A stretch of DNA of 64,000 nt. Source: Daphnia carinata. Taxonomy: Eukaryota. Shown in pieces: positions 595-44,274 of the stretch. The DNA is taken from contig NC_081331.1 in the NCBI RefSeq assembly GCF_022539665.2, positions 13,268,001-13,332,000 of the forward strand. The letters run 5' to 3'. Under the pieces are notes generated by a model. That model searched no databases. It had not been told where the DNA came from and worked only from the letters and a program-made list of their open reading frames with translations. Every line of letters starts with the position of its first letter. Positions within the stretch are counted from its first letter, which is position 1. The translations under genes and the position numbers were made by a program.

Positions 595-3500
595 ATGGCG
601 TCCTTAATTTCACAAGATATATGGAAAACGTGGGAAACACATGGCCACACTGAATTGTAAGTCAGTGCATCTTAGGTTTGATTAGGAAAAAAATGAAGCA
701 ATCTGGAGTACATAGCTTCTTCATTGCTTGATTCATAAGAAAAACTTTGGTGTTTAGCAATTTAGAGATTTTTTAAATTGTATTTGATGAAGTGGCCCAT
801 TAAAATACTTTTCTGATTATTTGCTCTAGTATGAAACTGCTTGCAGGCTGGATTGGTTCAGACAGTAGTAGTCTTCCTTCCATTGATAACAAAGGTTTGT
901 CTCTAAATGATCTTGTGTTTCCTCATGTTATGTTATTATATATTTAGAGCTGTTTCGTGCCATATACGAGTTTTTTTGGCAAGCCATCAGAGGTGGAATA
1001 AAGAAGGATTTAGTTTTATCAGCCATTGGAGACATTTTGGTAAAATCCTTCAATTTTAACAATGTAATTGTATTCACAATTTAAACATTTTTAAAACAGG
1101 GTTTGCATGGTGATCTAGCATCAGTGACACTAGATGTTCTGAATGTCATTGATCATGAAACATTGGTAACTGAGAATAATGATGAAAGACAGAGATTGTG
1201 CAGCATGTTGAAGGAGCTGGAAAATTGGCTTAGTGATGCACTGATTAAAGAGCGGTTGGAAATTGATACCTTACAAGACTGCAGCTTACTAAAAACAAAA
1301 AAGATATTTTACACTCGTTTCATCAAAGTGAAGACAAAGTTATTTTACAAGCAGCAAAAGTTCAACCTTTTACGAGAAGAGAGTGAGGGTTATGCCAAGC
1401 TTATAACTGAACTCAATCAAGAAATAGATGATACAATAACTCCTCTATACATTTTACAAGTAAAAATTATGAATTTCCATTGGATAAAGAATTTTGTCTT
1501 TCAACGTGCCCTTTATTTGTAAAGGTTATACAGTCTTTAATTGGCTGCTTCAACTTAGATCCCAATCGTGTATTGGATGTTATTCTTGAATCGTTTGAAT
1601 GCCGGCCACAACTTCATAGTCGTCTTTTTGTTCCGCTAATTCGATCGTACATGTCCGATTCCCTGACTTTATGCGAAGTTTTAGGATTCAAATTTACGTC
1701 GTACGACCCGTCTTCTACGCCACGCTCTCTGTTCGTCATTACCGCGCTTTTACTGCAGCACGGTGTTATTCGCCTAGATGATATTTATCGTTGGCTTACA
1801 CCCAAAGACAGCGAAATCGAGGAATCTGCTGCCAAAGAATTAGCAGACGCTAAAGAATACGCTCGCCGAATGAACATCATCAGTGTACCGAAAGAAGATG
1901 ACAAAATTGAAGAATTAATTGAAGAAAGGGCACCGTACAACCAGAAGTTTGGATTATGCGAAGCTCTTCTTTCTATTGGAGCCTGGGAACAAGCTTCAAC
2001 GCTTCTTAAGCGTCACCCAGAATTCTTCGTTACATCATATCGCCCAATCTCAAACAGTGTCTGCAAGCTCGTCGATTACGTCATTGAGCCAGTTTATCGT
2101 AAACGATGTTGCATTTCTCCGAAGCTTCCAGGAAAACCCGTTTTGGCGGTCGGTGTATGGAATTTTCCCAAGACAGCCAAGGAAATGAGTGAATTGAGAG
2201 AAACAGCGTTTCCAATGCTTCTCTCTTTGGGACCGCATTTATATAATGATCCCGTCCTCCTCCACAAATTAATTCGCTTGTGCAATACTGCATTGGACGA
2301 TTGCGGGTTGAACAATTCGAAGAAAGTTCCAACCGAAATGGATTCACTATACTTTGACGTCCTAACTCTTTTTGATGTTGTCGTGTTGCCATCTCTCGCC
2401 CTTATGGAATCCAATTGTTGTGTAGCAGAAGAAGTCTGGAATGTTTTGAAGAAACTACCCTACGAGCACCGATATCGACTATATGGACTATGGAAAAACG
2501 ACACATTCCAGAGTCACTCGCTGCTCATCCGTCGTAAGGTAGATTGTGTCAAGCGCATTAAGTACATCATGAAGCGTGTGAGCAAGGATAACGTCAAGCC
2601 GACTGGCCGAGTACTTGGGAAACTGAGTCATAGCTGTCCTGGCTTTCTTTTTGACTACATCCTCTCCCAAATTCAAATTTACGACAACCTGATCGGACCT
2701 GTTGTGGATTCACTCAAGTACCTGACAAATCTTTCGTACGACGTTCTGGGTTATTGTGTTTTGGAAGCTCTTTCGAATCCGGATAAAGAACGCACTAATC
2801 ATGATGGAACCACCATTTCAATGTGGTTGACTGCGCTATCAGCGTTCTGTGGTGCAATTTACAAAAAGTACAACATGGACCTCACTGGACTACTTCAATA
2901 TGTTGCTAATCAGCTGAAGGCACAGAAGAGCTTGGATCTTCTCATTCTTCAGGTACTTTGGCCGACATGTTGTTCATTGTTTCTTCTTTTACAAGTATTT
3001 TTCAATAGTCAGAAACCATTTAAGGGGTATATTTCTGCTTTGAGTGAAATCATTGTTGCCTTTCATTAAATTTTGCATTTCTATCTAGGAAATGGTGCAT
3101 AAAATGGGAGGAATTGAAGCGTCTGAGGAAATGACCAAAGAACATATGGAAGCAATGCAAGGTGGTGAGCTGTTAAGAGCAGAAGCAGCTCATTTTGGTC
3201 AAGTACGAGTTACAAAGAAGGCCGCTCAGCGTTTAAAGGAAACTTTGCTAGAACATAATCTGGCAATACCACTTTGTCTTCTCATCGCCCAACAGCGCAA
3301 CTGTGTCGTTTACCGAGAAACACAGAATAACCATCTAAAGGTATTTTGGAATTTGATGTAGTAATTAGATTAATCAGCATATTGTAACCTTTTTAAAAAA
3401 TTTCTATTTTGTAGCTTGTTGGTAAACTTTACGACCAATGCCAAGATACTTTAGTTCAGCTTGGGACATTCTTGGCTCTGAACATGAGTGTCGACGACTA

Positions 3501-6500
3501 TGTTAGACGACTGCCGCAGTTAGGCTCTTTATTATCTGATTATCACATTCATGCTGATGTCGCATTTTTTTTGGCACGCCCGATGTTTGCCCATTCAATC
3601 AATTCCAAATACGATGAGTTGCGGCGGGCTGAAAAGAATTCTAAAAATCTTCTTCCAGCACAAAAGACGCAAAAGTACTTAGAGGTAAGTGTCCGTTTGT
3701 CCGAAGACTTCAGACAGATTAAACAATTTTAGCGTGAACTTATTTGTAGGCTGTGCGACTGGTCATGACTCCTATTTGCGAATCGGTCCGGCCCTTGTGC
3801 GCTCCTAGAGTGTGGGAAGATCTCTCTCCTCAGTTCTTTGCCACATTTTGGTCGTTGACCGTCTATGACTTGTCGGTGCCCAGCACTGCGTACGAACGTG
3901 AAGTGCAACGACTAAAATTGGCGATTCAACAGACAAATGAAAATCGGGACTTACCTGCCAGTAAACGAAAGAAAGAGTTGGATCGTTGTACGGCACTTAT
4001 AGATAAGCTTCAGGAAGAAGAAAAGAAGCAAAAAGATCACAATGAACGTATAATGGCTAGATTGACACAAGAAAAAGATGGTTGGTTCCTTTGTCGAGCA
4101 GCGAAATTAGCAAAAACAGAAACAATCACACAGTTCTTACAACTGTGTCTGTTTCCTCGCTGTGTTTTTACCGCTATCGATGCCTTATTTTGCGCCCGCT
4201 TTGTACAGGTATTATTGCATTTTATTATTTTTATTTTGTTGTTTACTTCATCTATGCATTCTTGGTTTGCAGCTAATGCACAATTTGAAAACGCCCAACT
4301 TTTCAACTTTAATTTGCTACGATCGCATATTTTGTGATATCACATATACTGTGACGTCATGCACTGAGAACGAAGCAAATCGTTATGGTCGCTTTTTGTG
4401 CGCCATGCTTGAGACTGTAATGCACTGGCATTCAAGCAAGAAGATATTCGACGAAGATTGTGCCAACTATCCAGGCTTTGTCACTAAATTTCGGGTCGGC
4501 AACCAGCCTTCAGAAACGAATGATCATGTTGACTTTGAAAATTATCGGCATGTCGTCCACAAGTGGCACCACAAAATTGCCAAAGCACTAGTTGTGTGCC
4601 TGGAGTCAAAGGACTATGTACAGATTCGAAATGCGCTGATTGTCTTGATACGTATCTTGCCATTCTTCCCCGTCATAACACCACTTGGATCGGTAAAATA
4701 GCCAACATGTTTCACACATGATTGTAGCATAAAATAATATGTGATTTTAAATAGGTAATTGATCGGCATGTTGAATCCGTGCGCAATGAGCAAAAGGACA
4801 AACGGCAAGACTTGTCAGCAATGGCGATTTCGTACAGTGGGCAGTTAAAGAATAAAAAAGCATCCATGATTCCAGAATACGACTTCCATCTTGTGAACAG
4901 GAAACCTGTAAGCTTCAAGTAAAAGATGTTGGTATTAAAATACAGATCATTTTTCCCGTTTTTAAAAGGTTACAAAGGCGGCTCCACAAAATGCCCATCC
5001 ACCTGCTGGAACCACAAATACTGCTACGCAACCCGAAAATGGAGTTTCAAAACACGAAGGAGTAAATGGTATGATTTGAAACGGTTCGTTTACGTAACAT
5101 TCAGCCTTAACCAACATTTATGCGCGATAGGAGTGGATAAAACATCGACGAACGCACAGGACACTCCTTCCTCTACGCAAAGCGAATCCCAATCGAGTAC
5201 CCCAGTGACCGCCGGTATGAACAAGGAGATCAAAAAGGAAACTCGGTAACTCATTTAATTCTGTACTAATCGAATAAATTTTAAACTCGATTGTGACCGT
5301 TAGAGAGACGAATAAAGTGAAAGAAAAAGAAAAGGACAGGCACAAAGACGTGGTTGAAAAGAGGGAGGAGACCAGCGATCGAACCAGAGAGAAAAGGACC
5401 AAAGAAAGGAAAGAAGACAAAGAAGAAAGGCCACATTCGGGCAAGGTAATAAGAGTCTACGCACACGTTATTGATACAGGTTTTAACTATGATGGTACTA
5501 GGCTGATCGTGAGGAGGAATGGACGGAACGTGACAGAGAAAATTACAACGGATCTAGCGTTGAAGCTACCGATCCCGACCGAGGTATGGTGTCTTTGTTT
5601 TGTTTGAAATCAAAATTTAACGCTGATTAATTTTTCTAGTAGATTCCAAACGCCGGAAGACGGATGCTAATTTAACCACCAAGGTTAGTATCAAGGCGGC
5701 CGACCTTGACCTTTGACTTCAGTCTGCGTCTTCGCTCTTCTCAAGCTGTCACTCAACGAAAACAAAAAAAAATCATATATATAAAAAAAAAAATTTATAA
5801 GCTGCGCCCGCACACCGTGTCTGCGACTTCTCCCCTGGTCGTGCGAGTGAGGCCCATTCGCTCACAGTAAACCAATCCGTCCACGTAGCGCCAAATGCGG
5901 GACAAGATCAAACCCAGTGTAGGCCACTCAGTCACATTGTCAACACGGAAGACATTCAATCGTAGAAGCTGTCTCGGAATCCCTTAATTTAAAAAAATCA
6001 TATTTGCCTGTTAATATCCCCGGAATGTCGGTGAATCGTAATGCGCCCCTCCATCCATGGAATAACTCACGTGCTTGTAAGACCGGAAGCCTTGTTTTTT
6101 GCAAGGAGCACACTTAAGCCCGGGTTGCTGTGCAGTCACGTCCGTTACAATTTCGGCATGGCGACGGAGTTGGTCAGATCTAGCAGTTGCATCTACTGTT
6201 GCATACGGATCAACAGCAGCTTCTTCGGCAGACATGACACTAACCGAGAACTTCCCATCGCCATCGAGGCAGAGCCAAGCAAAAAAATGTTTTTGTTTTG
6301 GATGAAAAAAACTGGTCGACCGATCACCCGACCTGCGCGGATATTTGGACTGTGATGTCGAATGCCCTCAGTGTCTTCGCGTGGCTGCGCACATCCCCTC
6401 ACATGCTCGGTGCTGGGGTAAGTTACGACCCAAATGATATTGGTAGGAGATCGTTGATGGGGACAGCGACAGAGACGAAAATGGAGCTGCTGCGAAAAGG

Positions 6501-7228
6501 GGAAAGTGTCCCGGATTTGTTGTACATTCTCGGCGTATCAGGCGTAAGGCAAAAATGTCTTCCTCTCCAATGTGTGAATATGAATTTCACCTCGCATGCA
6601 TTTTACCGTTCATGAAACCCCCTTGTTTCCCAAAGATGCGTCCAATTTGGTAAATTTAACACCTCGAGTTGTCGTTGCAGAGTCGTCCTTCTACTCCTGA
6701 ACGTGAACGTGAGCGCCGCCTGGAAAAGGCTGAGCGGAAGGAACGACGAAACATTCAAGAAACCGAAGAAGAACGACGCGAAAGGAAGGGCGAGCGCAAA
6801 AGGGTATGTACTTGTTAATTATTTATTTATTTTTCTTGGTGATTCAATTATTTTATTTCTATCTTCTTAAGGATCGACTGCTGGAGGATGCTTTAATGGA
6901 TGTGAAGCGTCGCAAAGAGGATGAACGAGAAAAAGGTATTTGAATTTACACTGTCTTTATTATTCGCTTCCTTGTTTCATGATAGTTTTTGTCATTTGAT
7001 AGCGAGATCTCCACGCCACGGAAACGGAAGTCCCTCGGATGGAAACGGGGACAGAAGAGTACACAACAGGGTATAGCAGCATGTTTTTATTTTAAGTGTT
7101 TAATGTCAGTATAGTTTATTCTTTGTATGTAGGAATCGCCTCTTTCACGCGAGGCTTCGGATCGGTCATTTGAACGCTCAGAGAGACCGGAACGAGCCCG
7201 TCGCTCCACGGATAGTAAACGAAGATGA
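595..7228 (+). CDS. THOC2: THO complex subunit 2 (TREX mRNA export factor), 19 coding exons, ~1463 aa
   Basis: Hand-assembled exons: 595-656, 830-894, 948-1039, 1100-1459, 1525-2952, 3089-3340, 3415-3684, 3750-4208, 4273-4692, 4755-4907, 4969-5068, 5131-5245, 5304-5445, 5502-5583, 5643-5683, 6681-6803, 6872-6935, 7003-7070, 7133-7228. All introns are GT-AG, the total is 4392 nt in frame, and it ends in TGA. Recognised THOC2 motifs: [105 protein letters not shown]. The tail is K/R/E-rich, and its exon boundaries are less certain. Confidence 0.95.
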
Positions 7229-7345
7229 GAAACGAGAAGTTAAAAACTGAAGCGTCTGCTCATATTTGTCATTTAAATTCTGTTTTTAGGGAATTGAATT
7301 TGTCATGTTAGATTCTTTCCTTATTGATTTCCTTGAGGCCTAGAC

Positions 7346-8600: not shown

Positions 8601-9190
8601 GTTTGTTATTTTGTTATTTTTAAGCCTAACAAGCTACTATAATAATAAAAAGCCCAATGACAAGATACTTCAAGATATGACATCACATAATAAGGGACAG
8701 AAAGAATGAATTGTATATATTTTTTTCGTTGTTGTAAGCTTTTAAACGTTGTACTTATTTTTGTTTGTTTTTGCTGATGGGTAGTGTGAGTCGCTGTTAG
8801 AGGATGAGGCTCGGTTTTTGTTTGTCAACTTTGAGCAACTGTATCCTTTCCTCTTGGTACAAGCCACCGTCTCTCTCGATAACTTGACATCGCAAACAAA
8901 CCATTCTAGAAATACTAAGCCGAGACAATGAACAATTTCTGCGCGATTCCCTTGTATAATGACATCAAAGTGATATCGCAGTCAAGTGCGAGAATGACTG
9001 ATAAGCCGTGTTACTCATCACAAAATCGGACAGATTACATTATACCGTGATGCCAGTTGCAACTTTTATTATTTAGACTAAAATTGACAATTCTGTATGT
9101 GCATAGAGAAACAGCGGAATGACAAATCTCGATTGGTGAAATTTTTATTAATTAGAATATCTTTTTTGCCACTGTACTTTGAAGCAACAA

Positions 9191-9808
9191 TCAATGTCTG
9201 GTCTTGGCTGACTTGTTTAGAACCGGAGAACGGGTGCAGCCCGCCTTCACGGTTAAATTTTCAGGTTTGGACCAAGAACCATCCTCCTGAGCAAAAGTGA
9301 GTATCATATTAGTATTGAACATCAGCAATGTATTTGTGGCTTCATACTACCTTCAGAAAAACAACTTCCATTTCGGTCTCGAGCTGTAAGCAGTCGAATG
9401 TTTTTCCCTTTTTTCTGCTTTTGCAATAAAGACATTCCAGTTCGTAAAACATTGATGGGATTCGGTTAGTTTGCATATTTTCTTTTACAGTGAATGGACA
9501 TTCCATTGACTGCAATGCAGCAAAAAAAGAGAAAAATTACCTTTTTAAAAAGATATTGCTCCAAGACATATAGCGCAAATGTAACAACTGGAGGCCGGGA
9601 TGGTAAAATTTGAAGTACTTACATTGCCAAGTTCCCCAATCCTTTCAACTGAAGTCTCACTTTTTATTCTACTGCTCCTTGTAGCCATATGGCTGTTGTG
9701 AGAAGAACGGATTTTATTCGAACGGATTATGTCGCATCTTGACGGTAAGGGAAGTATGCAGATAGAGGAGGCAATTAGTAAAATTACAAAGGAAAATAGT
9801 CGCCACAT
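9191..9808 (-). CDS. Secreted small cysteine-rich protein, IL-17-like cystine-knot candidate, 3 exons, 146 aa
   Basis: Exons 9808-9623 (donor AAT|GTAAGT), 9509-9351 (acceptor TTGCAG, donor AAG|GTAGTA) and 9286-9191 (acceptor CTCAG, stop TGA). Both introns are phase 0 and the frame is intact. Protein: hydrophobic leader MWRLFSFVILLIASSICILPLPSRC...GELGN/SMECPFTVKENMQTNRIPSMFYELECLYCKSRKKGKTFDCLQLETEMEVVFLK/EDGSWSKPENLTVKAGCTRSPVLNKSAKTRH. The CPF..NRIP..E.EC..VKAGCT pattern matches the IL-17 family pattern CPW..NRxP..EAxC..VxVGCTC. TATA box upstream; AATAAA (minus strand) at 9149-9144. Confidence 0.75.
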
Positions 9809-9870
9809 GTTGGACTTGCTTCAGTAAAACTAAAATGGTAACTGGATGATAGTCGTTGAAGTAAGCTCGT

Positions 9871-10018
9871 TTTTATAATAATACCGGAAAACAAATTATA
9901 TTCACAGTTCTACAGGTTCTTTACATCCTAGATGGGTAGATGGAAAGCCCCTACCAGTTTTTATCCCCGTGCAGTAAGTTTCAAACGAAGTTTCCGTCCC
10001 CCCCTCCAGGGGCTTTCT
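9871..10018 (-). promoter_or_regulatory. Promoter of the IL-17-like gene: TATA box plus two NF-kB-like sites
   Basis: Minus-strand TATAAAA at ~9877-9871. GGGGCTTTCC on the minus strand at 9951-9942 fits GGGRNYYYCC exactly. GGGGCTTTCT on the plus strand at 10009-10018 has one mismatch. Confidence 0.5.
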
Positions 10019-10703
10019 TATCATGCACGAAGTACGGCGATAGCTTCGTGTAACGCCGTTTTTCTGCTTGGTTTCAATATAGCGTTTAATGGACGTTGGA
10101 GTTTCTTAATAATTTACAGTTTCCTACCAGCCCAATGATACTGAAATACTAGCCAATGCTTGACAACTTAAACATTACAAAATGAAAGTAAAGCTTCGCC
10201 AGAGAAGATTTCGAATTTAGCCTAAATTCTCTTTGCATTGCAATTTGTTGCAGAACATTCTCTCATCCCAATATGTCGTGGATAAAAGAAAGCAAATGTT
10301 CTTCTATCAAATTTATAGCTTCAGTGTGCTACCATTAATTCAGACCTTATGTATTGGCACCCGATTTACCTGTATGTTACATGATCTGTAACACTTATTC
10401 GCTAAGAGCCCGCGTAACTGAACGGCATCGAAGCATATCAAATCGATGCAAACTTGCAGCGCAGCATTCACGTATGTCGTTAAACATGTCAATCTACCGT
10501 TCTGTCAATGATAAAAATTACAAAATTCTGAACTCACTTCAAATCTACTTGACTGGAGCCAAATATCTAACCATTGACACATGAACTAAACTGTTACTGC
10601 TGGTATCTGAGAAGTGAGTAGAAAATTGCATTTTTTTGAGGATGAACTGTATTGCTGCTCATTAAACCAGATGTTAAGGGAGTACAGAGCACAATACTGA
10701 TGT

Positions 10704-11554
10704 TCAAGCAATGCTGCTGGAGTTGGAGGCAATCCTGGGCCATAGATCAGCACACTCCTTGGCAACAGGTCCAGTGATAGCTGATCCCTTCATTTCTCCT
10801 TTGTTATTTACTATCACTCCTGCATTGTCTTCGAAGTATATAAATACTCCATCCTTCCTTCTAAATGGCTTCCTCTGCCGAATAACTACTGCTTGCATAA
10901 CTGAAAGATAGAAAAATTAAAGTTAGATCAATTCCTCCTGGATTCAATAATGTTCTACATGAAACATGGCAGTGTCAATGCCGACAGGTCAAGCAGCTTC
11001 ATGGAAAAAGCTCTGAGTTTAAGACATTCTTTATTCTACCCTCTGAAAGTTATAGAATGGCAGAGAAACCACCATCCATTTTTTGCTGCACGAGGGTTAA
11101 CATGATAGGAAGTTTTCTAGTAGATTACCTTTTTTCCTCAGCTCTGGTTTACCCTTCTTCACTGTAGCAACGAACATGTCACCAACACCAGCAGCAGGCA
11201 AGCGATTAAGACGACCCTTGACACCATAAACTGCAATGACGTACAGGTTCTTTGCTCCTGATAATGAAAAAAATTAGCATACCAACGAATGCTTTAAAGA
11301 AAAATAATAGAAATGAAGACTACAAACCTGTATTGTCAGCACAGTTCATGACGGCTCCCACGGGGAGACCCAAAGAGATGCGGAATTTTCCACCCGCGGT
11401 TCCACCACGTCCTTGTCAAAACGATTCAGAAAATTGCAATTACACATTCTCAACAAACAGATTACATTGTAAATGTACACGATAACTAATAAAAGTAACG
11501 GATGTTTTAGATAAATGTCGATGAATTGACAGAGAGCATACCTCGCTTAGACAT
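10704..11554 (-). CDS. RpL23: 60S ribosomal protein L23 (uL14), 4 exons, 140 aa
   Basis: Exons 11554-11542, 11411-11328, 11257-11129 and 10900-10704, total 423 nt. Translation [42 protein letters not shown]...[73 protein letters not shown]. Confidence 0.98.
10970..11097 (-). ncRNA. Intronic box H/ACA snoRNA candidate in RpL23 intron 3
   Basis: On the sense (minus) strand: hairpin 1 closed by ACCCTC...GAGGGT, followed directly by the H box AGAATA (11037-11032). Hairpin 2 is closed by AATGTC...GGCATT, followed by ACA (10975-10973) plus 3 nt. Length ~128 nt, inside a 228-nt intron that is longer than the other RpL23 introns. Confidence 0.75.
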
Positions 11555-16721: not shown

Positions 16722-19700
16722 GAAAAGCACAATCGGATGGGTTAATAGAAATAAATGAAGAATATTATTTTGGTAAATCTATCCGTGAGCTGACGCGTAT
16801 ATCAGCTCGTTCCTATTCGATCCACAAATGGGGACAGAAGGGAGGGACACACACACAAAAAAATGTCGGTCTGATACGGTTTGTCATTAGTTGGCACAGA
16901 CACGTCCCATTTGTAACTGTCGGTTTGATCAATAGTCGGAGCCGCCGACGCTGCCGCCGCCACCGCAATGTTGAAAATGTTTCGTTTTCTGTGTCACTCG
17001 CTGAACATGTTTTTTTTTTATTTTTCCTCGTGCCGCCATAACTACCCTCTACATGCGAACGAATATTTTGATAAAGAAAATAAAGAAAACCTTAGTGTGT
17101 ATACTCTGTAATTACACGCGCACATGAAACACTTGCGGTATTTCCTTGTTCCGTTTATCATTAAGGAAAACTTCGTTTTTTTTTTTTTTTCATATTTTGA
17201 CGCGATATAAAGAAATGATTTTTAGTAGAAGAAGAAGAAAAAAACGCATTAAAAAAACAATGCGTTGGGGTATATACGGACAAGATATGAAGACGCTGAA
17301 GTTGATTGAACTGTCGGGTTTCGTACACGAGAAGAACTTTTCTTCGAAGAGAAATGGCTCGAAGAAAAAGAGGGAAAACAAAAATCCGAGGGAGAGGGGG
17401 GTTCCGAGACTCTCAAACGAGCCGGAGCAGCCACACAAAGAAGACTTGTTTCCTTATATATATTCACTTAAAGGTGTTGTAAGGAGGAAGAAAAAAAAAT
17501 ATATATATAAAAATAAAAAAGATGGAGGAAGAAAAAAAACAAAAAAACAAGAAAAGTTTCAACATCTTTACAAAAATTCGAATAAGGCCGACCTCATTCA
17601 TTACATGCAGTAGAGCTGTCTAAACGCGGGCAAAAGAGCGGTCTCCCTTCATCTTTGCCTTGTTTCTTGCCTTTTTTTAACCTTCGGTTTTTTTAGTTTT
17701 TTTTCAAAATTGAGGTGGGCCCACCTACTGCTATGCGCAGTACATCCAAGGCTCTGGAACCCCCCTCTCTTTCACAGCAGACGGATACATTTTGAGATTT
17801 TTTTTAGTGAGCCGAGTTTGGAATATCTGGTTGGGGCCACCCACATTGTTGAGGCCCTTATTATTGTTTAGAAGAAAATAAGGAAAAGGCTGGAAACCCA
17901 GAGAGCCGAGATGTTGGATGATGATGAGGCGTGTTCCTTGTATCTGCCGACGAAACAATCGGGCCCGGACGATCGCTGAGACGCTCAAGCTATATTTTTT
18001 ATTCTTCGTTGGACGACGGCGATGATGATGATGGTGTCTCCTTCTCTTTTCTTGGATGTATCGAGTCACGGAACACCCTACGGGCCTTATTTCACGTCTG
18101 CCAGATGATCAGCCTCCGCGAGTCTATAATCCAACCGTCTTTTTTTTTCCTTTTCGAAGAATAATTTTTTTTTTTTTTTTAACAAGTTGATATTAACAAA
18201 TTTAGATTCTTGTCTGTGTAATCAAGGTTTAGCTTAAACAGTGTTTGATATCAGTATTACAGGTGAACAATTTTTGCCAGTCGTTCTTCTTCCTGGAATT
18301 TTTCGACCAAGCGTGTTGTTGTGTTGCTGATTAAAAAGTTCATCAAGTTCATGGCTCCCGTACATGCCAACTCAATTATCTGAAATAAGAATTGTTTAGA
18401 AAGAGATGATGATGATACATTTTTTCTTTGTTTGTGGAGATGGGGGGGTTCCGTTTTTTTTTTGTTTTTTTTTAAGGGGAAGGTAAAGATGGCCGTTGTG
18501 CGCTAGATGATTGGTCGAGAGCGCAACTATAGGCTTACGTGTAGCATAAATTAGTTACGGGTTGGGGGAGCCATCAGGGCGCTCTATTCTCTCTCTCTCC
18601 CAACCATCAGTCCCTAATGATGTTGTAGGGGGCAGCACGTAATTAGGGTGGGTCGGTTGTTTGCTACGAAAAAAAATATATATATATGTGGAAGGTATCG
18701 CAGCGGAGAGGGTGGAGGGAGAAGCGAAACAACAACACAGGGCCATGAAAGGTTAAAAAAAAAAAAAAATCCAAAATATACAGAATAAATAAATAAAAAA
18801 CATGAGACCTAAAAGGCCGAGGCTGAAAAAGAAAAAAAAAAAAGAACGCGGATGGAATAATAAAGTAGATTCATAAACCAATCATGAAAGAGCTGCCGTT
18901 GCTGTCCTGGAAAACATAGACAGAGAAAATGAGAGCCACTTATCTCTTTTCGTTTGTATAGTTTTTAAGTCTTGCCAGAAACGCAATCATCTATATAGGA
19001 TTCCAGAATAACTGGCTCGTTTATTTTATTTTATTTTTTTCGAGAATAAAAACGAACAGTCGGTCTTATGTTGTTTCTTTTTTCCATTCTGACATTACTA
19101 TTTATATCTCTGTCTTTCTTATATTTTTTTTTTTACCTTTCCTTTTTCGAGTGCTGTTGTCCGCCATCTATCTAATGATCTGAACGAATAGAGAGGACTG
19201 TTGTTCTCTCGATGCCGCGGCCGTGTTATCATCATCAGTGGCAGCAACAAGAAAATAACAGAAGAATAGATTTTCTTTTTCAAAAATGCCTAGAGACAAG
19301 AGTCTTTTGCCTTTTCTTGTCGGGCGCTGTATACTAAACGAAACAAAACAAAAATTTCGTTTTTTTTTTTTCTTTCATTTCTGTCTCAATACACAAATGG
19401 AAAATAATCTAACGTTTACATTAGCGTATAGCTTGGCCATTGAATTGTATATTCTTTCACGTATAGATATATAAAATACATAGTCCTAGGTAATATAAGA
19501 AACGAACAAAAGCTATTGCGCTGCACGGTCATTTATTCTATGCCACCTTATTGTACAGAAAGAAAACAAAAATAATAATCATTTCTATTAATCAAGTTGA
19601 TATTCACAGGGCTCTACGATTATAGTCGCACAGTTTCGAAACACTTAGACAGTGTGTCTGCAATAAAAAAACTCTTGGATGGGCCGATTCAAACCACAAG

Positions 19701-22700
19701 GTGCGTAATTTACCAAACAAAACGTCTTTCTAAAGAAAGTCCTGACTTTTTCCTGTTTTTATATTTCCCAGACAAAAGGGGGGGAGAAACAAAAAATCGT
19801 TCCAACCATTTCACTTGTTATTACAGCTATCGTTTCATTAAAAAAAAAAAAAAGAAAGAAAATGCAGTAATTAAAGTAAATACACTGCTTCCAACGCATT
19901 ACGTTCTCTCCTGCAAGGCATCACTTTATAAGAGACTTGCAAATTGGCTGGTCATCATGTCCCTTTTTTTTCTTTGATACCATTTACTGATTTTCCACCG
20001 TTCTCTCTATAACGCAATACAAAACATTGCGTAAGAAGTGAAGCTTATAACGTAAGATTGCGCAACCTGCAATCGAGTTTTCGAAATTGCGAACAGGACG
20101 TGAATGATAGACTTCAACTTGGCTTTTAAGTCAGATACGATCAGACATCATTCGAGCTGAGCAATTGAATACATTGTGCTCTGAAACAAGAAACATGTGT
20201 TTTATATATTTAGAGAATCTCATTTTTCAGGCGAGCAATCTAGGCCAATCTTACGTGTTTCTAAGAACGTATGTTTTATTTAGGTTTTCTTTTTTTAAAA
20301 CTCAATTGTTGGGTAATTGCATTCGCAGCCAAAGCACACAGTGAAAAAAAACAATGGGAGACAATGAATGCATTTTCTAAAGGGAAAAGTAAAATGTCCG
20401 CCAATTGTTGATGATGGAACGTCATGGCGACTATGTCTATGGGCGAAATAAGAAGACACACAAGCCACGGCTATAGGAGAGTTTGAAATTGTTGAATGTT
20501 TTATTCCAACGGTGGAGTGAAAGCCAAAAGCCAAAAGACGCTGACAGCCAGCATGCGCGTTGTCCGATATAATGTATGCAAGCATTTGCCTATCAACTAT
20601 TTTGTGATAAAATTGATACATAAATACTGCGCAACCGCCCACTGTTCAGCAAATATTCAACGAGTATTTATTCACTGGAGAATTGAGGTCGGAGAAGTCT
20701 ATCTTATTCATTTCACCTGAAGAAACCATTAAAAAACACAAGAGTCGAAAAGAAGAAAGGTTCAGCTGCACCCATAAAAAGGCATCAGTGGGGAGTGCGG
20801 CGCGGTTGTTGTTGGATGATGATGAGTTCCTCGAGCCGGAGAACTCATTAGCATACAACACACCGTCAGCGATATTCGAAGAAGATATTTTCCGGCCCCA
20901 TCTTCTTCTTCTTCAATTTTTTTTCTTTTTGTTTGGCTCTCTCTCTCTGTTTTCTATTCTCTGTTTTTTTCTAAAAAAGAAAAAACATTTAACATGAATA
21001 GATAGGAAGACAAAAAGAGACCCTCTGAGATGATAGAGCCGAGTCGTGATGTTCTGACGTGATCATTACATACTATAGATGGATTGGCTCGTCTGGTTGC
21101 TAAAGTTTCGACGATGGCAAGAGTCGAAAGGCAAAGGAGGAGTCTCAAAACCGAGAATAGATAATATGCCAACCGTTAAGGGCGAGACAAGCAGGGGGGG
21201 GGGGGGGGGGTTCCGAAAATGTTGACGTTGGCTATACACACGCTGTTGTCTTTTCTCTTCGGACTTGTTTCCAATGTGCTTATAAAGATAACGAACTATT
21301 ACATTCCTTTTGGAAAAAGGAAAAAATTGCAGTAAATATACACATTCGTTCTCTTTTCTCTATCCATTCGGTTGATGTAACATCGACCAATCCAACGTTT
21401 ACACATACGCCGACGTGTAATATATGCCGAATACTTTAACGGGCACGAGTCGCCCTTTCTCCGCATTCAGATGAACGTCATGATAGAAACTGTAGAAGTT
21501 ATTAGCCAATCAAATCAACGATTGAATGTTTTTTTTTTTTGCTGCGCATATACAAAAAGGCAGCGTGCGTCACATTTGAATTCAACCATTGTCGCGTATA
21601 AACTCAAAAGAAAAGTTTCAATTTTAGCTTTAAAAACATTTTCTTATTAGAATTTCTTTTTAGGCCTGCAGCAACCAATTACCTGGGAACGGCCTAGTGA
21701 AAAATAACGAGACTGGGCCGCTTCCCAGTGGTCCTGAGTGTAAGCCCAATTACGTTATATACGTACAGTTGTCAATACGCCATCCTTTTTTTTCCTCCAT
21801 AAACTAGACTTTCCAACGACTCGGGTTCTTTTTTTTTTTTTCCCCTCAATTCTCCCAACATGCATAGGCTGTAATAGGTAGGACACACTGAGGGGGGTGC
21901 CTAACAACAGCGTGGAATGGTGGTTAAAGAAACGAATGACTGAGGAAGATACAGTGCCGTATATATCAAGCTATACGTTACAACTGTTACGTTCAAACGA
22001 CGTGCATGCACGCAACGGCCAGGCACTTCATCGAGACATCGACCAAAGAGAGCCAACGACACATGGACGATGGCAACTCACCTGGTGGCAATTCACGAGG
22101 CACCCCCAACCTGAGAGTATAAAGAAAAAGGGGGAGGAAAAACAAAATAAATGAAACGAGGACGAAGAGAGGGACCTGACGATGGAACTTCATGAACAAT
22201 TTAACAAGGGCCCTTTTTACTTGGGCGCTCTTCCCTCAAGGCATTGGCCCTTCAAGGTGGGGGGTTCCTTAGTTGCATACGTAGGCCCCAATGAGAAAAT
22301 GGTATCGTTCAATGCTGTCGTTCACAGCATGCATTTCATCGCTTGATGCATAGTTTTCACAGAAGAATGCGCAGTGTGTTAAGAAAAATCGAGAAGAACA
22401 AATGAAAAGAAAGCTAGAAATGATGGTAATGCGAGAGAGGTGACTCTAAATGAATTAAAAGGACTGGTTTCTCTTCTCCCTTTCATTCGTCCTAGTCGAC
22501 GTAGATGAGCTGTATCATGTGAAACAATTGCCGTTTGTCAACAGCAACGTACAAGAGCTCGCCTTTGTGTTGTATGGAAAAAGGGAACTTGGGCGGTCTA
22601 CCGATGGTGTTTCGATAAAACAACCATGTGATAATGGCCTGTTCTTACAGTGGGGGGAAACTATAGGACAGGTGATAACAAAAGGCTCTGTTTATTTCTT

Positions 22701-25535
22701 CTTTAAAAATGTCACTTGGTCAAACAGTTGCGGGACGGTCAATGTCGTTCTGCTATGTGCCTATAAATTTAACGTCGTCCTCGTGTCTTAGACTATACTA
22801 CCATTGGTGGTTTAATAATACAAATACTATATGAGAAGAAGAACATTTTCGATGGTAGAATTTCTTGTTTCCCAATATCCTCGAACGTTTTTATTTGATG
22901 GGGGAAGTACGGCCTATTGAATTCAATGTTTCTGTGTCAGGCTCGAGAGAAATAAACTTTCGAAACGGACGATGAGTTGGTTAAAATTCTGAAAACAGCA
23001 TGGCATATCTATAAGCGCTTTATTCCGCTATTTCTAGTAGGGATAGATTTAAAAGGACGCCATACAATTGCAAGCACAAACTGTTTTACAACCCCCAAAC
23101 TTTTTGCAATGAAAACGAGCATAACTGGCCAAAGTCATTATAAATATGAAAGCAGAAGAGTTGAGGTGGAGCCGTCAACTATCGATCAGCGGAATGATTC
23201 GAAAGGGGCGCCCATTAACAACAAACCGCATGCACGGAAAGGCAAATCGGGGTCTTGACATGTCAAAGGTCATCATCAATTGGACAGCACTCGTCGCTTC
23301 GTTTATATTCATCACCGCTGTGTGTGTCATCCCTTCAAAGGTATGCGCATACAAACTATAGGCATTTACCTTATATGGCTACGGTCAAACACACTCATGA
23401 GCCCTGTACAGTTTTTACCTTCCTTTTCTTTTCTTTTTTTTTTGAGGTTTCCTATATACATCCAACTGCAAATAGCTATGAAGTGCGCAGAGGGATTATA
23501 ATTAGTATCAGAAGGCTCAGCAGTGGCCGCCAGTCAAAATGTTGATGGTTTCCCTTTTTTCCCCCTTTTCCATCATCTTTCTTTGTGACCTGATGTTTTG
23601 GGATCCTTATCCTGTTGGCCTATACAGACCTACACTGTTTATGTATGTGCATAGACGCATTCCGTATATGTACACATAAAAACAATAATTAGTTCAGCTT
23701 TTTTTTCGGTTCACTGCCAGTCTCACATCTATTTGTCGGATATCGAAATAGAAGAGCCGATAAGACACGGTGGGTTTGTGTGGGCGGGGTCCTGTCGATA
23801 TTGGTGTGCATTTTGAGAGTTCGCCCTTTTTTTTTTTTTTTTTTTCTCTATACCAGGTGGATCCCCCTGAAAACAGCAACACACCGATACGACACGCTGT
23901 TGAATGTGACGGGTATTTTGTACACATATACACAGACAGTGTCACACAGTGACATGCTTTAAGAAAGAAAATTCAAAACATGGGATATAGGCTATATTGG
24001 CATTTCTTTCACAGTTAAATAGGATTTGGTTCTACGTGGCGGTCAGGCCGCATCGATCTGAAGACAGTTTTCCCAGTGTGTTTTTTTTTTTTTTTTTTCG
24101 TAGTTTAGTTCGGACAGTTTGGGTGGGCCATTGTACAAGTATAACTGGTGCAACCATATAGGCTGTATAATGTGATGGGGTCCACCCCGCAGTCAAAGGC
24201 TTTTCAACATGTGAGCGCGGGGCGGCATGTTGTGTCATTTTGCCTATACACAGATCGGCCCCCTTCGGAATAGGGCCCTTCTTTGAATTTTTTCTTCAAA
24301 GTTTTTAGTGGCTCTTGTGGTGCCCGCTCGATGGATTTATGATGATGGTGGTGCAGCGGTATACCATCCCGAAAAAGAGCAACACACAAAAACGAAATAT
24401 ATTTTTACGAACGAGTCAGTGGGGAAACAGATAAAAATAGAGAAAAGAGGAAGTCTTTTTTTCTTGTACAAGCTGCTGCTGTTGTTGTTGAAAAAAAAAA
24501 AGAACCTCAATAGAGCATTTGCTGCTGTTGGTGACAGTCAGGACGGAGGTCCAAAACCATATAAAAAGAAAGCGGTGCCGAAGTATTATGATCATTTGTT
24601 ATATTGAAAAAAAAAAAAAAAATAAGTCTGTTTTTGTTGTGTACGCCCCAAACAAACTAGAGTGACAATAGTGACACACATATACAAGCGGGGTCCTGTG
24701 TCAATTCAGCCGTTTGAACCGCTACCGCCGCTTCCTTTTTTTTTCACTTGAACACCTTTTATTTGTATTTTTTCAAGGCCTATGGGATATTCGTATGATA
24801 AGGCTATATAGATCTCTATTGATACGCGACTTTGCACTGGCTATACATAACAGCGGCTTTGGGGCCCCGTCAGCGCATCTCTACCGACTTGACCACACAA
24901 ACATGTTCCGATGCTGTTATAAACCGGTAATACCCCCAGCTGAAATCAAAAGAAGAAGAGAAAAATAAAAGAAGTCAGAGTTTTTTTTTTTTTTACTTTA
25001 TTTCTATAGATGCCTTTAGAAGGCCAGTATAATATTTACATCGTTACTATAAGAAAGAAGAAGAAGAAGAATCTGTGCGATATATCACTGACGTGTATAT
25101 AGCCGTGACCCCGTCGGTATCCTTTGACTTTTGGGCTTGTCTATACACACATACAAAAAGTAACGCAGCAAAAAGGCCATCACACACAACTGAAACGTCT
25201 AGAACAGCATATATATATATATATATATAGCGCATTGTAGACAACTTCCGTCTGGAAGCATTCAAAACATTCATTCAACAAAAAAAAAAAAAAAAAATGA
25301 ATTGCGATAGGTTAAAATGCGAAAGAAGTTCCTGGGTGGCGTGTTCTTAGTGATTTGTCTGATGTGTACAATTTTTTTTTTTGGACGTGTTAACTAATTG
25401 ACTCTCGTTGATCTCTTGCCACGGGTGTTTTTGTTTCATAATTTAGGGCTTGCAAAAGTTCTCTGTGCAGACACAGAGAAGAAGAAAAAAAAAAACAACT
25501 GACAGTTCAGAGAGTCACGGAATAACTCGTTACGG

Positions 25536-25544
25536 GACCACCCA
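25536..25544 (+). promoter_or_regulatory. Perfect Ci/Gli consensus site GACCACCCA
   Basis: Exact 9/9 match; one of five in the en/inv locus. Confidence 0.5.
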
Positions 25545-25782
25545 TGATGCCATCATAAACATCGTTGGCTGGCAGCGTAGATTCAATTTTCGTATGACTT
25601 GATTTTCCATCGCCCCGACCCGAGTGAAATGGAAACGAATTTGCATCACTAGAAGCTTTTTGGGAGAAAGATATAAAGACAACATATAGAAACGAAAGTC
25701 TCGTTCATACTTTCGTCGAGACTAATTGACTTGTAGTTGGAATTTTCAGCGATGTAAAATAACAAAAGAGAATATATATACG

Positions 25783-25787
<5 letters not shown>

Positions 25788-25816
<29 letters not shown>
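25788..25816. repeat. (TA)n microsatellite
   Basis: About 14 TA units, seen directly. Confidence 0.85.
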
Positions 25817-25820
<4 letters not shown>

Positions 25821-26220
25821 CTTTTCTTTTTATGATTTTATTTTTATTTTTTTTTTTTCATTTTCGGGTTCTCCGCTTCTTTGAATGTTGTGCCATTAAA
25901 AGAGCTCTGGGTGCTGTCGGCCCGAAGAAGAAGAAGAAGAAGAAAAAAAAAAAATAATAGGAGTGGCTGAGAATAAGAAGGCGAAGAAGGATAAGAGGGG
26001 AAAGGTGAAGGGAGACGAGGAAGAAAAAAAGATAGAGCCGTAGGTGCTTGGGCGCTTTTCTCTTCTTCATGCTTCTTCTTCTTCTTCTTGAAACTCCCTC
26101 TAAAAATAAAAATAAAATTTATAAAAAAAAATATGTAAAAAAAAAAAAAAAAAAAAAAAAGAAATAGAAGAAGTTCATGCGGTTGTGAATAACGCATTTC
26201 ACTCAGCTGGGGCCTCAGCT

Positions 26221-26229
26221 TGGGTGGTC
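26221..26229 (-). promoter_or_regulatory. Perfect Ci/Gli consensus site (TGGGTGGTC on +)
   Basis: Exact 9/9 match, flanked by three CTCAGCT(G/T)G motifs. Confidence 0.5.
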
Positions 26230-29200
26230 TCTCTTTCTCTCCTCAGCTGGTTCCTTGACTGTATAAATTATCATGCCCAGAATCCCGGCGCTTTAATTCT
26301 TATTTTTTCTTTTAAATTCTGATGTCTGACTGCCGCTGTTGCTGGTACGACGGCAAAGCTATCCAGTCATCAGGTATTCATAACCCGACCTGTTCTTTTT
26401 TTTTTATCTCTCTCTTCCTTACCTCCCTCTGTCTCTCCTCCTCTCTGCATCCAATCAACGCTGCTGCATGACTTTATAAAGCGCATCACGATTCTATCAA
26501 TTCTGTTATTTCTTTCTATGTTTTTTTTTTTGTTTTTTTTTTTTATTTTAAAGTCTGTCTCTTTTTCTTTCTTTTTCTTTTTGACTTGTTTCCTATTTCA
26601 GAATGGGTTGCATTTGAATTATTTATGCGTTATTCACCAACAACCTTTCTCTGTCGTTCAAATAGACAACAGCATCACGAAAAAGTAATCAATCAACTTC
26701 GATGAAACCTCACTGCTGTTAATTCGAAATTCCATTTGAGATGTATATGCATATTATATGTATATATATATATAGCTGTTTACATAGTCACTCTTGTCGC
26801 TATGTCGATGTTAACATTTTCCTCGGAATATTCAGTTTCACGCAGGGCTTGGCGGCCGCGTTTCTTTCTTTCACGGCGCTTTATACAGTTTCATATACAC
26901 ACGACTGTAGGCATCAGACTTTTCGAATTCAATAAAGTCATTTATTATTGAAATAGTTGTTGGGAGGGGGGGGGGGGGTTGAACCTTTCGAATTTCAAAC
27001 GCACCATCCGCTCGCGGGGTTATACAACATCGAATAAGAGAAATACTTGCGTTCCAATTGTGAATCATTCAGCGGTTCGATTTCGTGAAAGCAGCTGTAA
27101 CCCACAGTCCAGGTCAAAGTATATTGGCTATAGTACAGTATATATCTTATTTGTTTATAGACTTTGAAACGAATGCGCTATCAACAAAATACGTGGTATC
27201 GATGGAAATTCGTTTCAACATTGAAGTCGTTAAGTGACACCGCCGTGCGATCGAATTGCTTTTGAAAAATGCATTATTGGACTACGTATTCAAACAGTGC
27301 TTGCTCCGATGAAATTGATTTAAACGAAAAATGCTCGAATTCGATGGGAGTTGTGCATATTTCTCAATTGCATTTCAAAGACAATTCGATTGTCTTTGAG
27401 ATAAGAGCCAAAAAAGTTCAGGGTTCTTATATTTAAAACTCGTGTATTAGTTCTGCTCAGTGCTGATTGGGCGTTCTTCTTCTTTCCGCTGGCCGATAGG
27501 CTAAACAAGAGGCCCTGCATAGGCAGGAGGAAAAGCTGGTTCATTGTTAGGGCCCTTCTTTTTTTCGTTCCCCACGCATACAATTCACAGGGCAGACGGA
27601 GCACAAAAGATTAGGGCGGTTTGTTACCTGATTGGTTAACATAACTTTGGCGGCCACGAAGAGGGGAGGAAGAATCGAAAAGGACATCACAGTTCCCCCG
27701 TCCCTCCGCCGGTTATAAATCACTCGCCAGGAGGCACTCTCCAGTGGGTTCCGAAGGGGGGGTTCCGAGGCACCCCAATATGTTGAACTTTTTTTTTATT
27801 CTTTCTTCTCCCCCCCCCCCCCCCCCCTCACTAAAAAACTCTTAGCACACACACACACACACGGAAAACGAACAGATATGTAGGGGGAAAAAAAAAACGG
27901 GCTTCCTGCTGTGTCGCCAACATGGACGATGATGGACCCAACCAGCAAAGTATTCTGTCTGTGTGTACATCTTCTCTCTTTTCGAAATAAAAAAAAAAAC
28001 AGTCCGTGTGTTCTCTCTTTCTACATGAGCCGCCATCGTCGCTGACGACAACGAGCTGAGCGAATAGAATGCTCTTCTCCAACAAGGACGACATCAGTTT
28101 TGCCTGAATAAGAAAAGAGGGAGAAAGAAGAAGAAGAAGAAGATAAAAAAAAAGCCAACATGAAGGCGTTTAGGGACCACACCTGGAAGTCGTCGTCAAA
28201 CCTTTCAAGCGGATATCAAACAAAAGCCTCTTTTGTTCGAGACAACATAAATCGAGTTTTTGTAATAAAATACTTGCGTGCGTTTTGCTCGCCGTTTGGT
28301 ATAGATGTGTTCGTCTACAAGACGTTCTCCGTGTGTGTGTGTTGACTTGAGTATTTGAATTTGTTTAACGGTGATGGTATGTACGTTTCACTGAGCCCAA
28401 ATGTCCCAGACAAACTACCCAGCAGTTCTATATGCCGGCATTTCTATTGTTGTCAAGGTGTCGATTCTCTCTGCTGGCAAAAGGGTGAGGTACGACCACG
28501 AGCAGCATTGAAATCGGGGGGGACTTTTCAGCTTCTGCGCTCATTTCCCGTTTCGATTGTTACTAAACTAGGCCTAGCGCAACGCGTATTGTGAAATACA
28601 AGGTCTGTTTTTCGTTTGTGTTGTTCTTGTAAACTCGGAGAATCGTCGATGAAACTATGGCATTTTCAGTTAGTTCTTGAGACAATCCAAATGTTTAAAG
28701 TTTCTAGGACGTTAAAGATGGAATTATATTTGATCAGGGCGTCACATCGCGATATACTGAGGAAGTATCATTATTGTTCGATCGACAAAGGGAAATGAAC
28801 CTGAATTTGAACAAAAAAAAAAAAAAAAAAAATGAAACATCTGTACATGAAAAAGCATTTTGACCCGATGGCCTCGCGTAATTGACGTGCTGACTTTCTA
28901 TAGCTCCACTTCACTTATAACCGTGGGCTCATAATCACGATGGAGATGATGATGCAAGAACGGCGGCATGACCCCAGCAATCAATGAATAATTGAGACGA
29001 ATGTGTCCCTCCCCGCGCATCGTGTTACAACGCCGCTGCTAAACGTCATCAACTGCGTACACAACATAAACGCACGTTCGGGATACAATGCCTTCCTTTT
29101 TCCTTTTTTTTTAATGATTTTTCTTAAATAGCATTTTAATGCGCACATCCAACATTATAGACGTGGGAGTCTTTTCCGTTTTTTTTTTTTTTTTTTTGCT

Positions 29201-29419
29201 CTTTCACGCTTGCCAACGATGACAATCATGGCTGGCAGCGCTATAATGCATGTTGCGAGTAAATTGCTGATTAGACAGGTAACCTTCTTTTGTGTTTTAT
29301 GGTAATACGTTATCATTAAATGCTCGATTCCAGTTGACCTCCTTCCACCACATACCGATCTCCATATGGAAAGAAAATGAAAACCCACCAGATGGCATTC
29401 ATATTTCCTTTTTTGTTTT

Positions 29420-29975
29420 TCTCTCAGTCCATTCTCTCCGAATTTAGGCCTAGAATGGGAAATCATTTTCGAAAGCGGAAGACTCGAGATAAAACGCGTT
29501 TCAGGATTGTAAATTGTATGAGAACCCCATTTGATCTATACTGCTCTAGTTATTCATAAACGTGTTTGTGTTCCCTATGAGTTTTGGCGTGAACTATGTC
29601 GATTTTTTGAGCAAAACGGAATTAAAGAGGTTTTCAACGAAAGCTTTGAAAACGGAACTTTGAATGCGGATAACTCAAAAACTACAAGTCGTACGTAAAA
29701 TCGACGTCAATTTTCGTGATCCTCGTTGGATTCTTAATCGAAATCATGTGTAGTTTGTTCCATATTTTGATTTTGGCTAAAAAAAGGAATAAGCCCGAGT
29801 TTTCGGCCCGTTATTAAGCCCGAGTTTTCGGCCCATTATTAAGCCCGACGTTCTCGTGAAAAAATTTAGACCTTAAAATTTTAATTAAATATGAAAATGT
29901 GTACAGAAACTGAGATTTATTACGTATTTATTATGTCATACTTTCGCACAGTTATACGCAGTTATACGCAAATAA
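29420..29975. mobile_element. MITE-like or transposon-derived remnant with short tandem repeats (approximate bounds)
   Basis: Two and a half tandem copies of TAAGCCCGAGTTTTCGGCCC(G/A)TTAT at ~29790-29850, sharing the TAAGCCCGA core with ~8387-8414, plus a GCAGTTATAC duplication near 29950-29970. No coding remnant. Confidence 0.35.
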
Positions 29976-43796: not shown

Positions 43797-44274
43797 CAGC
43801 GTTCCTCCAAGATGAGGAACGCCGAGTCTCGGTTTAAAAAAAAAAATTTTTTTTTTACTTCTTTTTTTCTTTTTCAACTCGTATTCTTTATATTCTTGTT
43901 ATCAAAGTGATGAAGTCAACGAGGCTGAAGAGATAATTTTTGAGGCAGCCAGAGAAGGGAACCATCCCTTCTTTTGGATTGGACGAAAGTTGGACCAATC
44001 GTGAAAGTAAAAGAGGCGGTCACTTGCTCCAGCCGACTCCGCCTTTCTCCGTTCCAGCACTGGAGCCTTTTCTCACAAGTTGTTTTTAAGCCCCCGCCAG
44101 CTACTTGAGCTGTCGTCAGTCGTCGACAGCACTTGCTCCAAAGCACACATATCTCAATCAAGCGCACTAATTGGCTTCAAACTTGTCAGTTGTTTTTTGT
44201 TTTTTTTTGTACCGTCGCTTGGAGTGGTGTGTGTTCGTGCAAAATCGACAGCAAAAAAAAAAAAAAAAAAAAAA

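Follow-up and report, generated by a model that had tools for sequence, protein, structure and literature searches.

The window, by which we mean the whole 64,000-nt stretch of Daphnia carinata DNA analysed here, very probably carries an intact three-exon gene for a small, likely secreted protein of the IL-17 family, which has two cysteines fewer than every full-length relative compared and so likely forms two knot disulfides, not three. The IL-17 family, the IL-17s of Daphnia and the T1C knot type described below were all known previously; what this locus adds is a further family member with an apparent loss of a knot disulfide.

The gene lies on the minus strand and opens with an ATG at position 9808, from which three phase-0 exons, each divisible by three in length (62, 53 and 31 codons, followed by the stop), specify a 146-aa product with no internal stop. 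The coding part of exon 1 (9623..9808, minus strand; residues 1-62) encodes a hydrophobic N-terminus, a basic low-confidence linker and the start of a short helix that precedes the knot domain. Intron 1 (9510..9622, minus strand; 113 nt, phase 0) has a GTAAGT donor, a pyrimidine tract and a TTGCAG acceptor, and is followed by exon 2 (9351..9509, minus strand; residues 63-115), which carries the CPF and RIPS motifs, Cys66, Cys88, Cys91 and Cys102, and the first three strands of the IL-17 domain. Intron 2 (9287..9350, minus strand; 64 nt, phase 0) runs from a GT donor (GTAGTA) to a CTCAG acceptor, and exon 3 (9191..9286, minus strand; residues 116-146 and the stop) supplies the last strand together with Cys132. 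This is the three-exon, uninterrupted 146-aa model that a sequence-only reading of the stretch had proposed, and its GT-AG introns, open frame and collinear protein matches bear it out. The 87-aa exon 1 read-through reported there is likewise correct: the unspliced frame spans 91 aa from stop to stop and 87 aa counted from Met, terminating within intron 1 at 9545-9547.

Searching the D. magna counterpart against the window by tblastn gave three collinear matches on the three exons (E 3.8e-41), with 47/62 residues of exon 1, 34/51 of exon 2 and 16/31 of exon 3 identical to D. magna. We also built a family HMM from 18 full-length relatives, excluding the window protein, which scored the spliced product at 143 bits (E 3.5e-46) and the exon 3 segment alone at E 5.2e-5. 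Across six frames of the 64 kb, only the three exon segments rose above the inclusion threshold of this HMM, and no second family member was detected within the window. Judged by this conservation, the gene model is real and not a product of chance, its predicted splice junctions and both cysteine substitutions described below being known from a single assembly. For 9050-11200 no RNA run was listed, an outcome that counts neither for nor against expression. Averaged over nine residues from any start between residues 4 and 13, hydropathy at the N-terminus lies at 2.0-3.3, in a stretch conserved in D. magna, and exon 1 likely encodes a signal peptide.

Candidate regulatory signals flank the coding region; those upstream are matches to consensus patterns and were picked post hoc. 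A putative core promoter (9840..9877, minus strand) combines TATAAAA at 9877-9871 with an initiator-like TCATCC 30 nt below; above it on the same strand lie a strict kappa-B match, GGGGCTTTCC, at 9951-9942, a GGATAA at 9966-9961 and a STAT-like TTC-N4-GAA at 9989-9980. Strict kappa-B matches occur twice in the 64 kb, against 3.9 expected, and one of them is the match above the IL-17 gene. When the 300 nt above the TATA box were shuffled, a kappa-B match appeared in 46/2000 shuffles and kappa-B together with STAT in 9/2000. The other strict match (62844-62853, minus strand) likewise shares its 300-nt tile with a STAT-like site; such sites are found in 2/2 kappa-B tiles and in 47/213 tiles overall. 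Downstream, a candidate AATAAA polyadenylation signal (9144..9149, minus strand) begins 42 nt after the stop and a second starts at 9070, and the 190 nt after the stop contain no AU-rich pentamers.

The IL-17 gene sits between the genes for THOC2 and RPL23/uL14, with two engrailed-type homeobox genes farther along. THOC2 (about 1085-7230, plus strand), recognised by Pfam THOC2_N and Thoc2 above cut-off in a 545-aa exon, lies tail to tail with the IL-17 gene, its end about 2 kb from the 3' end of the latter. Apparently within a THOC2 intron, a stretch of about 1 kb (5690-6650) holds overlapping frames of 106-123 aa on both strands; two of these frames were scanned without a Pfam match, and the stretch may represent an alternative exon or what is left of an element. 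RPL23/uL14 (11553-10704, minus strand) is the immediate upstream neighbour of the IL-17 gene and shares its strand, and Rfam at gathering scores gave no match anywhere in the window, the RPL23 introns included. The homeobox genes (44011-49482, plus strand, and 55588-56061, minus strand) face each other, and both carry a Homeodomain and the Engrailed C-terminal signature. Within the long non-coding region at 17396-31222, GGGGGGTTCC is present seven times, possibly as a recurring regulatory or simple-sequence motif.

We then considered the family to which the protein belongs, for which Pfam and fold results on the window's own sequence come from exon 2 only and the full-length fold evidence from the 67%-identical D. 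magna protein. The sequence-only reading had named an IL-17-like ligand. IL17 (PF06083) is indeed the best Pfam match of exon 2 (E 2.8e-4), but at 21.6 bits it stays under the 24-bit cut-off, which the D. magna counterpart passes at 28.9 bits. The same family came out best for 14/14 relatives scanned, with 7/14 above cut-off. As a query, window exon 2 had no PDB sequence match and no usable Atlas match. A profile of 20 relatives run against PDB sequences returned 23 matches at E <= 10, of which 21 were IL-17A (E 1.2e-4 to 1.4e-3); two weak LIM matches from this search, as well as PHD-finger and plant LRR-kinase matches, were rejected as driven by cysteines or by RIPS. In the family profile, CPF (66-68) and RIP (78-80) of the window protein align with SPW and RYP of IL-17A, and the domain is C-terminal.

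The AlphaFold model of the D. magna protein (P0002) has a mean pLDDT of 70, mostly 80-95 over residues 51-130, and comprises four strands, with helices at 3-16 and 54-63. Foldseek with this model gave 37 matches at E <= 0.001, and the 40 matches listed were all IL-17A, IL-17F or IL-25 entries (5n7w_X was identified as IL-17A via the PDB profile search). Against 48,161 chains, VIA-align placed IL-17A first (Z 7.7, rmsd 3.1, 82 aligned); IL-25 scored Z 7.3 (rmsd 2.9, 80 aligned), the ligand of a Torso-complex structure, which we take to be PTTH, came fourth (Z 5.7, rmsd 3.4, 71 aligned), and NGF and a noggin complex followed at Z 5.2 and Z 4.7, all scores being below Z 8. The top three Atlas clusters were IL17, at 0.92. 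Folded alone, window exon 2 formed two strands and gave weak Foldseek matches, none at E <= 0.001, with all 35 rows listed being IL-17 (best E 0.25). The structure search thus found, for the D. magna model, a four-stranded cystine-knot fold nearest IL-17, in line with what had been read from the sequence. Taken together, the profile matches and the modelled fold of the D. magna protein support the view that the window gene encodes an IL-17-family protein.

The same three segments occur in gene models of five Daphnia species, labelled 'uncharacterized', 'hypothetical' or 'unnamed'; to call the gene hidden was therefore an overstatement, since its congeners' copies are merely unnamed. Closest is D. 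magna LOC116916222 (XP_045025465.1, KZS03506.1; 67% identical), followed by D. sinensis KAI9565852.1 (62%) and by D. pulex LOC124205696, D. pulicaria LOC124329217 and D. galeata CAH0099965.1 (each 45-48%); identity to full-length relatives other than those of D. magna and D. sinensis ranges from 21 to 48%. Exon 2 retrieved the D. magna protein, which in turn retrieved those of D. sinensis and D. pulex, and cluster look-ups added D. pulicaria and D. galeata. When 1.84 billion representatives were searched without a profile, 17 relatives, mostly unnamed, emerged at E <= 0.001. Neither the window's own protein nor a second copy from the same species appeared in the database searches, and an exact look-up of the 87-aa read-through was also negative. 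An exon 2 metagenome scan pointed to two loci in 102 stretches, which were dismissed as chance, being short matches among stop codons.

Introns are shared as well. P0001 and P0007, two read-through proteins of unspliced D. magna sequence, match the translated intron 1 of the window at 23/32 and 27/36 columns, indicating that intron 1 is homologous and at the same place in D. magna, and P0001 departs from the spliced sequence at the very residue of window intron 2. The spliced D. magna form is represented by P0004 as one continuous frame, found only in Logan assemblies (4 contigs), suggesting that its transcripts are spliced. Among the D. magna-like Logan proteins, P0001 reads through intron 1 in frame and P0007 does so out of frame, a difference apparently of one base in the pyrimidine tract, and D. 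magna could have a form that retains this intron. Because the tree places the window protein at an unresolved fork, in no well-supported clade, we base its presumed orthology to the Daphnia counterparts on identity and shared introns. These counterparts have the length class and motifs of the window protein and, in D. magna, the homologous intron 1 and an intron 2 at the same residue. They differ in that each has seven domain cysteines against five, and the window copy has a remodelled loop at 92-101, a long branch, and sequons at Asn125 and Asn139 in place of Asn46. In P0005 of D. sinensis the conserved N-R-I-P has become Y-R-N-P and the Pfam score falls to 21.9 bits; divergence at conserved sites is therefore not confined to the window lineage. 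Farther afield, the distant and unnamed P0019-P0022 (21-27% identity) keep the cysteine frame and score 15-20 bits against Pfam IL17, short of the cut-off; the subfamily is therefore not restricted to Daphnia, and annotation can easily overlook it.

The seven domain cysteines of the family are D. magna 67, 89, 92, 95, 102, 133 and 135, and the two that the window copy lacks are 95 and 135. Position 95 is Cys in 26/26 relatives aligned, these being what remained of 39 proteins once 11 near-duplicates and two read-throughs, exon-1-only or frameshifted, had been dropped, and position 135 is Cys in 18/18 full-length relatives, several of which are close kin. At the latter, which is the last knot cysteine (Cys 6), the window has Arg134 (CGT; 9230..9232, minus strand), one transition from a Cys codon. 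The former, the third motif cysteine and putative knot Cys 3, is missing from a remodelled lysine-rich loop (residues 92-101; 9393..9422, minus strand) and aligns with Arg94 (9416-9414) or a gap. The sequence-only reading passed over the fact that the terminal C-x-C ends in Arg and that the third Cys of CxxCxxC is absent. Of the 18 columns with 90% invariance or more across 13 non-redundant relatives, 16 are retained in the window copy, and those lost are precisely the two cysteines. Two random losses among the 18 columns would strike one of the three knot pairs with a probability of 0.02, or 0.14 if both were cysteines.

The knot bonds of IL-17 are 1/4, 2/5 and 3/6, and the type without 3/6 has been named T1C (PMC11087794, section 7). 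We mapped D. magna 67/102 as 1/4, 89/133 as 2/5 and 95/135 as 3/6, with 92 as an extra cysteine, so that the two losses fall on one bond. All six knot cysteines (type T1A) are present in 18/18 full-length relatives and incomplete in the window copy, which matches T1C: Cys66, Cys88, Cys102 and Cys132 are present and Cys 6 is absent, the bonds between them being predicted. The window copy therefore likely has two knot disulfides instead of three, and the loss of the cysteine pair appears recent and lineage-specific, within one genus. Invertebrate T1C proteins as described in PMC11087794 have likewise kept the 1/4 and 2/5 cysteines without 3/6; the window case differs in that its loss would be recent and inside one genus, with T1A congeners for comparison. 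Vertebrate IL-17A, IL-17F and IL-25 (type T2), the best structural and profile matches, share the P-W/F and R-x-P motifs and also have two knot disulfides only, but they have lost bond 1/4 (Cys to Ser) and kept 3/6, the opposite of the window copy, and are 16-24% identical. Sea-urchin IL-17 subfamilies without the two C-terminal cysteines (reported in PMC5457136) provide a further precedent for cysteine loss.

Assignment of both losses to one bond depends on the numbering. HMMER aligns the second motif cysteine (D. magna 92, window Cys91) with knot Cys 3 of IL-17A, the second cysteine of its knot ring, across a two-residue gap and against the mapping used; were Cys91 the knot residue, the lost upstream cysteine would be the extra one and the losses would not amount to one bond. 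Bond 3/6 would still be absent under either numbering, because Cys 6 is Arg. We regard this numbering as distinctly unlikely. P0020 lacks the middle cysteine at that column and keeps the third, while P0019 inserts two residues before the middle cysteine and preserves the C-x-x-C spacing. The last Cys of C-x-C-x-x-C is the knot residue, and a ring made of CxxC and CxC would probably be too tight for threading. Other invertebrate IL-17s show C-x-C-x-x-C (PMC4517768 supplement). It is barely credible that faulty assembly or a private allele accounts for the missing cysteines and that the species normally makes a full-knot protein: Arg134 is one base from a Cys codon and only one assembly has been read, but the second absent cysteine maps 180 nt from it, within a loop altered in frame at many points, so a single miscalled base would not suffice, and the two lost residues are predicted bond partners. 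Could the gene instead be decaying, its cysteines lost by drift under relaxed selection and its protein no longer signalling? The end branch of the window protein in the tree measures 0.54, against 0.026 for D. magna and 0.097 for D. sinensis, and it breaks 12/48 columns invariant in the five Daphnia, where each other species breaks 0-3 of 36-39, a comparison that is not symmetrical, two Daphnia pairs being close kin. Exon 2 is 49/53 identical between D. magna and D. sinensis, against the window's 34/51 with D. magna, and neither it nor exon 3 is better conserved than translated intron 1 (the 27/36 above). Yet the frame is open and the length differences from D. magna are whole codons throughout, whereas neutral substitution-only simulations kept the frame open in only 66/2000 runs at 33% change and 155/2000 at 25%. 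Retention of the 16 near-invariant columns has p 0.035 at a 67% background; these controls are rough, built without codon alignments, and recent relaxation is compatible with them. The changes moreover cluster around the lost cysteine, 8 of the 12 broken columns lying within D. magna 90-106 (8/14 Daphnia-invariant columns changed there vs 4/34 elsewhere; Fisher p 0.002, with the boundary set post hoc), and the gene has its splice sites together with TATA-like and poly(A)-like signals. The rapid change fits relaxed or positive selection, full decay appears less likely, and a gene that has ceased to signal is in our view very unlikely.

Two further alternatives concern what kind of ligand the protein is. 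The sequence-only reading had left room for a trunk/PTTH/noggin-like cystine-knot ligand, which would signal via the tyrosine kinase Torso and not belong to IL-17. These proteins have the cystine-knot fold in common with it, the Torso ligand ranks fourth in the fold search of the D. magna model, and Atlas clusters with mixed IL17/NGF/Spaetzle labels score 0.88-0.90; D. pulex may also have a Torso, and PTTH can use both receptor types (PMC11087794). But IL-17 comes first in Pfam, the PDB profile search, Foldseek, VIA-align and Atlas, the Torso ligand lies 1.6-2.0 Z units below the IL-17 entries, and PTTH, Trunk and noggin-like proteins are absent from the Pfam and PDB profile searches, which leaves this alternative a slim chance. 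An IL-17-domain neurohormone or developmental ligand like CFSH or PTTH, acting in sex, moult or growth, would depart from the cytokine reading set out below in physiology only, and is plausible without being probable. CFSHs are described as the only IL-17 homologues in decapods and bind IL-17R, and ecdysozoan IL-17s are said to be mainly neurotrophins, which runs contrary to an immune role (PMC11087794). Like the window protein, itself likely secreted, decapod CFSH is a secreted crustacean protein with a C-terminal IL-17 domain, and if Cys25 were retained the D. magna protein would have an eight-cysteine layout like that of type I CFSH (PMC6056722, PMC10604874). Its description nevertheless sets it apart: CFSH (Sp-CFSH) is made as a preprohormone of 223 aa that comprises a precursor peptide of 33 aa, a KR site and a mature chain of about 167 aa with eight cysteines (PMC6056722), whereas the window protein has 146 aa, a linker without KR, and seven cysteines in the precursor, of which five or six would be mature. 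RSSR at residue 44 occurs in the window copy only. No named database match was called CFSH, most matches being unnamed, a review lists branchiopods as without CFSH (PMC7924870), and candidate kappa-B and STAT-like sites lie upstream.

We propose that the hydrophobic N-terminus would direct the protein to the secretory pathway, with cleavage probably following S-x-C25, which every one of the five congeners retains. The four strands of the knot domain would be held by Cys66-Cys102 (1/4) and Cys88-Cys132 (2/5), 3/6 being gone, so that a T1C knot would have derived from the T1A type of the congeners. The spare Cys91 might link two chains as a dimer, or pair with Cys25 if this is retained in the mature chain. 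If it behaves as its family does, such a dimer would engage a single-pass FN3-SEFIR IL-17 receptor; IL-17Rs are listed for both D. magna and D. pulex, the latter also having a possible Torso (PMC11087794, Dataset S1), shrimp CFSH and lygus-bug PTTH bind IL-17Rs (section 11), and the CIKS/Act1 adaptor is reportedly absent from arthropods (section 5). As to physiology, we tentatively favour an infection- or stress-inducible cytokine over a CFSH/PTTH-like neurohormone, a leaning prompted by the kappa-B and STAT-like sites above the TATA box and by the fast evolution. Bolder, and unlikely, is the idea that the switch from T1A to a two-bond T1C in one Daphnia lineage was driven by positive selection, which rebuilt the loop as a basic receptor- or pathogen-contact surface of an NF-kappaB/STAT-inducible cytokine.

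The statement that such ligands are poorly characterised in crustaceans holds in part. The IL-17s of decapods are the CFSH hormones, which are well studied (PMC10604874, PMC6056722, PMC4888303), and IL-17s and receptors of Daphnia figure in surveys; the present gene, for its part, is unnamed in the papers found. One IL-17 has been catalogued in D. pulex (PMC4517768), but this entry, 125692, appears by eye to be a longer and different paralogue. Two IL-17s have been counted in D. magna (PMC8353272), to which the gene could not be matched, as nine terms for it had no match in the text of that paper's supplement. Of the three D. pulex IL-17 accessions in PMC11087794, none has been matched to it. 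Its counterpart may nonetheless be among the Daphnia IL-17s already catalogued. PMC6945601 mentions IL-17 only as a pathway-enrichment label. We found no paper naming any of six identifiers of the Daphnia genes, in a search that covered subscription journals thinly, and among the papers listed by our other literature searches there was no functional study of a Daphnia IL-17.

For the organism, these results would put a name to a conserved cladoceran gene that databases leave uncharacterized, in a genus whose genes are routinely knocked down and whose infections and sex determination are routinely studied by experiment. For the family, the window and D. magna copies form a natural pair, 67% identical, without and with one knot disulfide, and the cost of losing a knot bond is therefore directly testable. 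Were the switch indeed the work of positive selection, it would represent a change of knot class observable among close relatives, and the protein would be an arthropod IL-17 with an immune role, the known members there acting as hormones.
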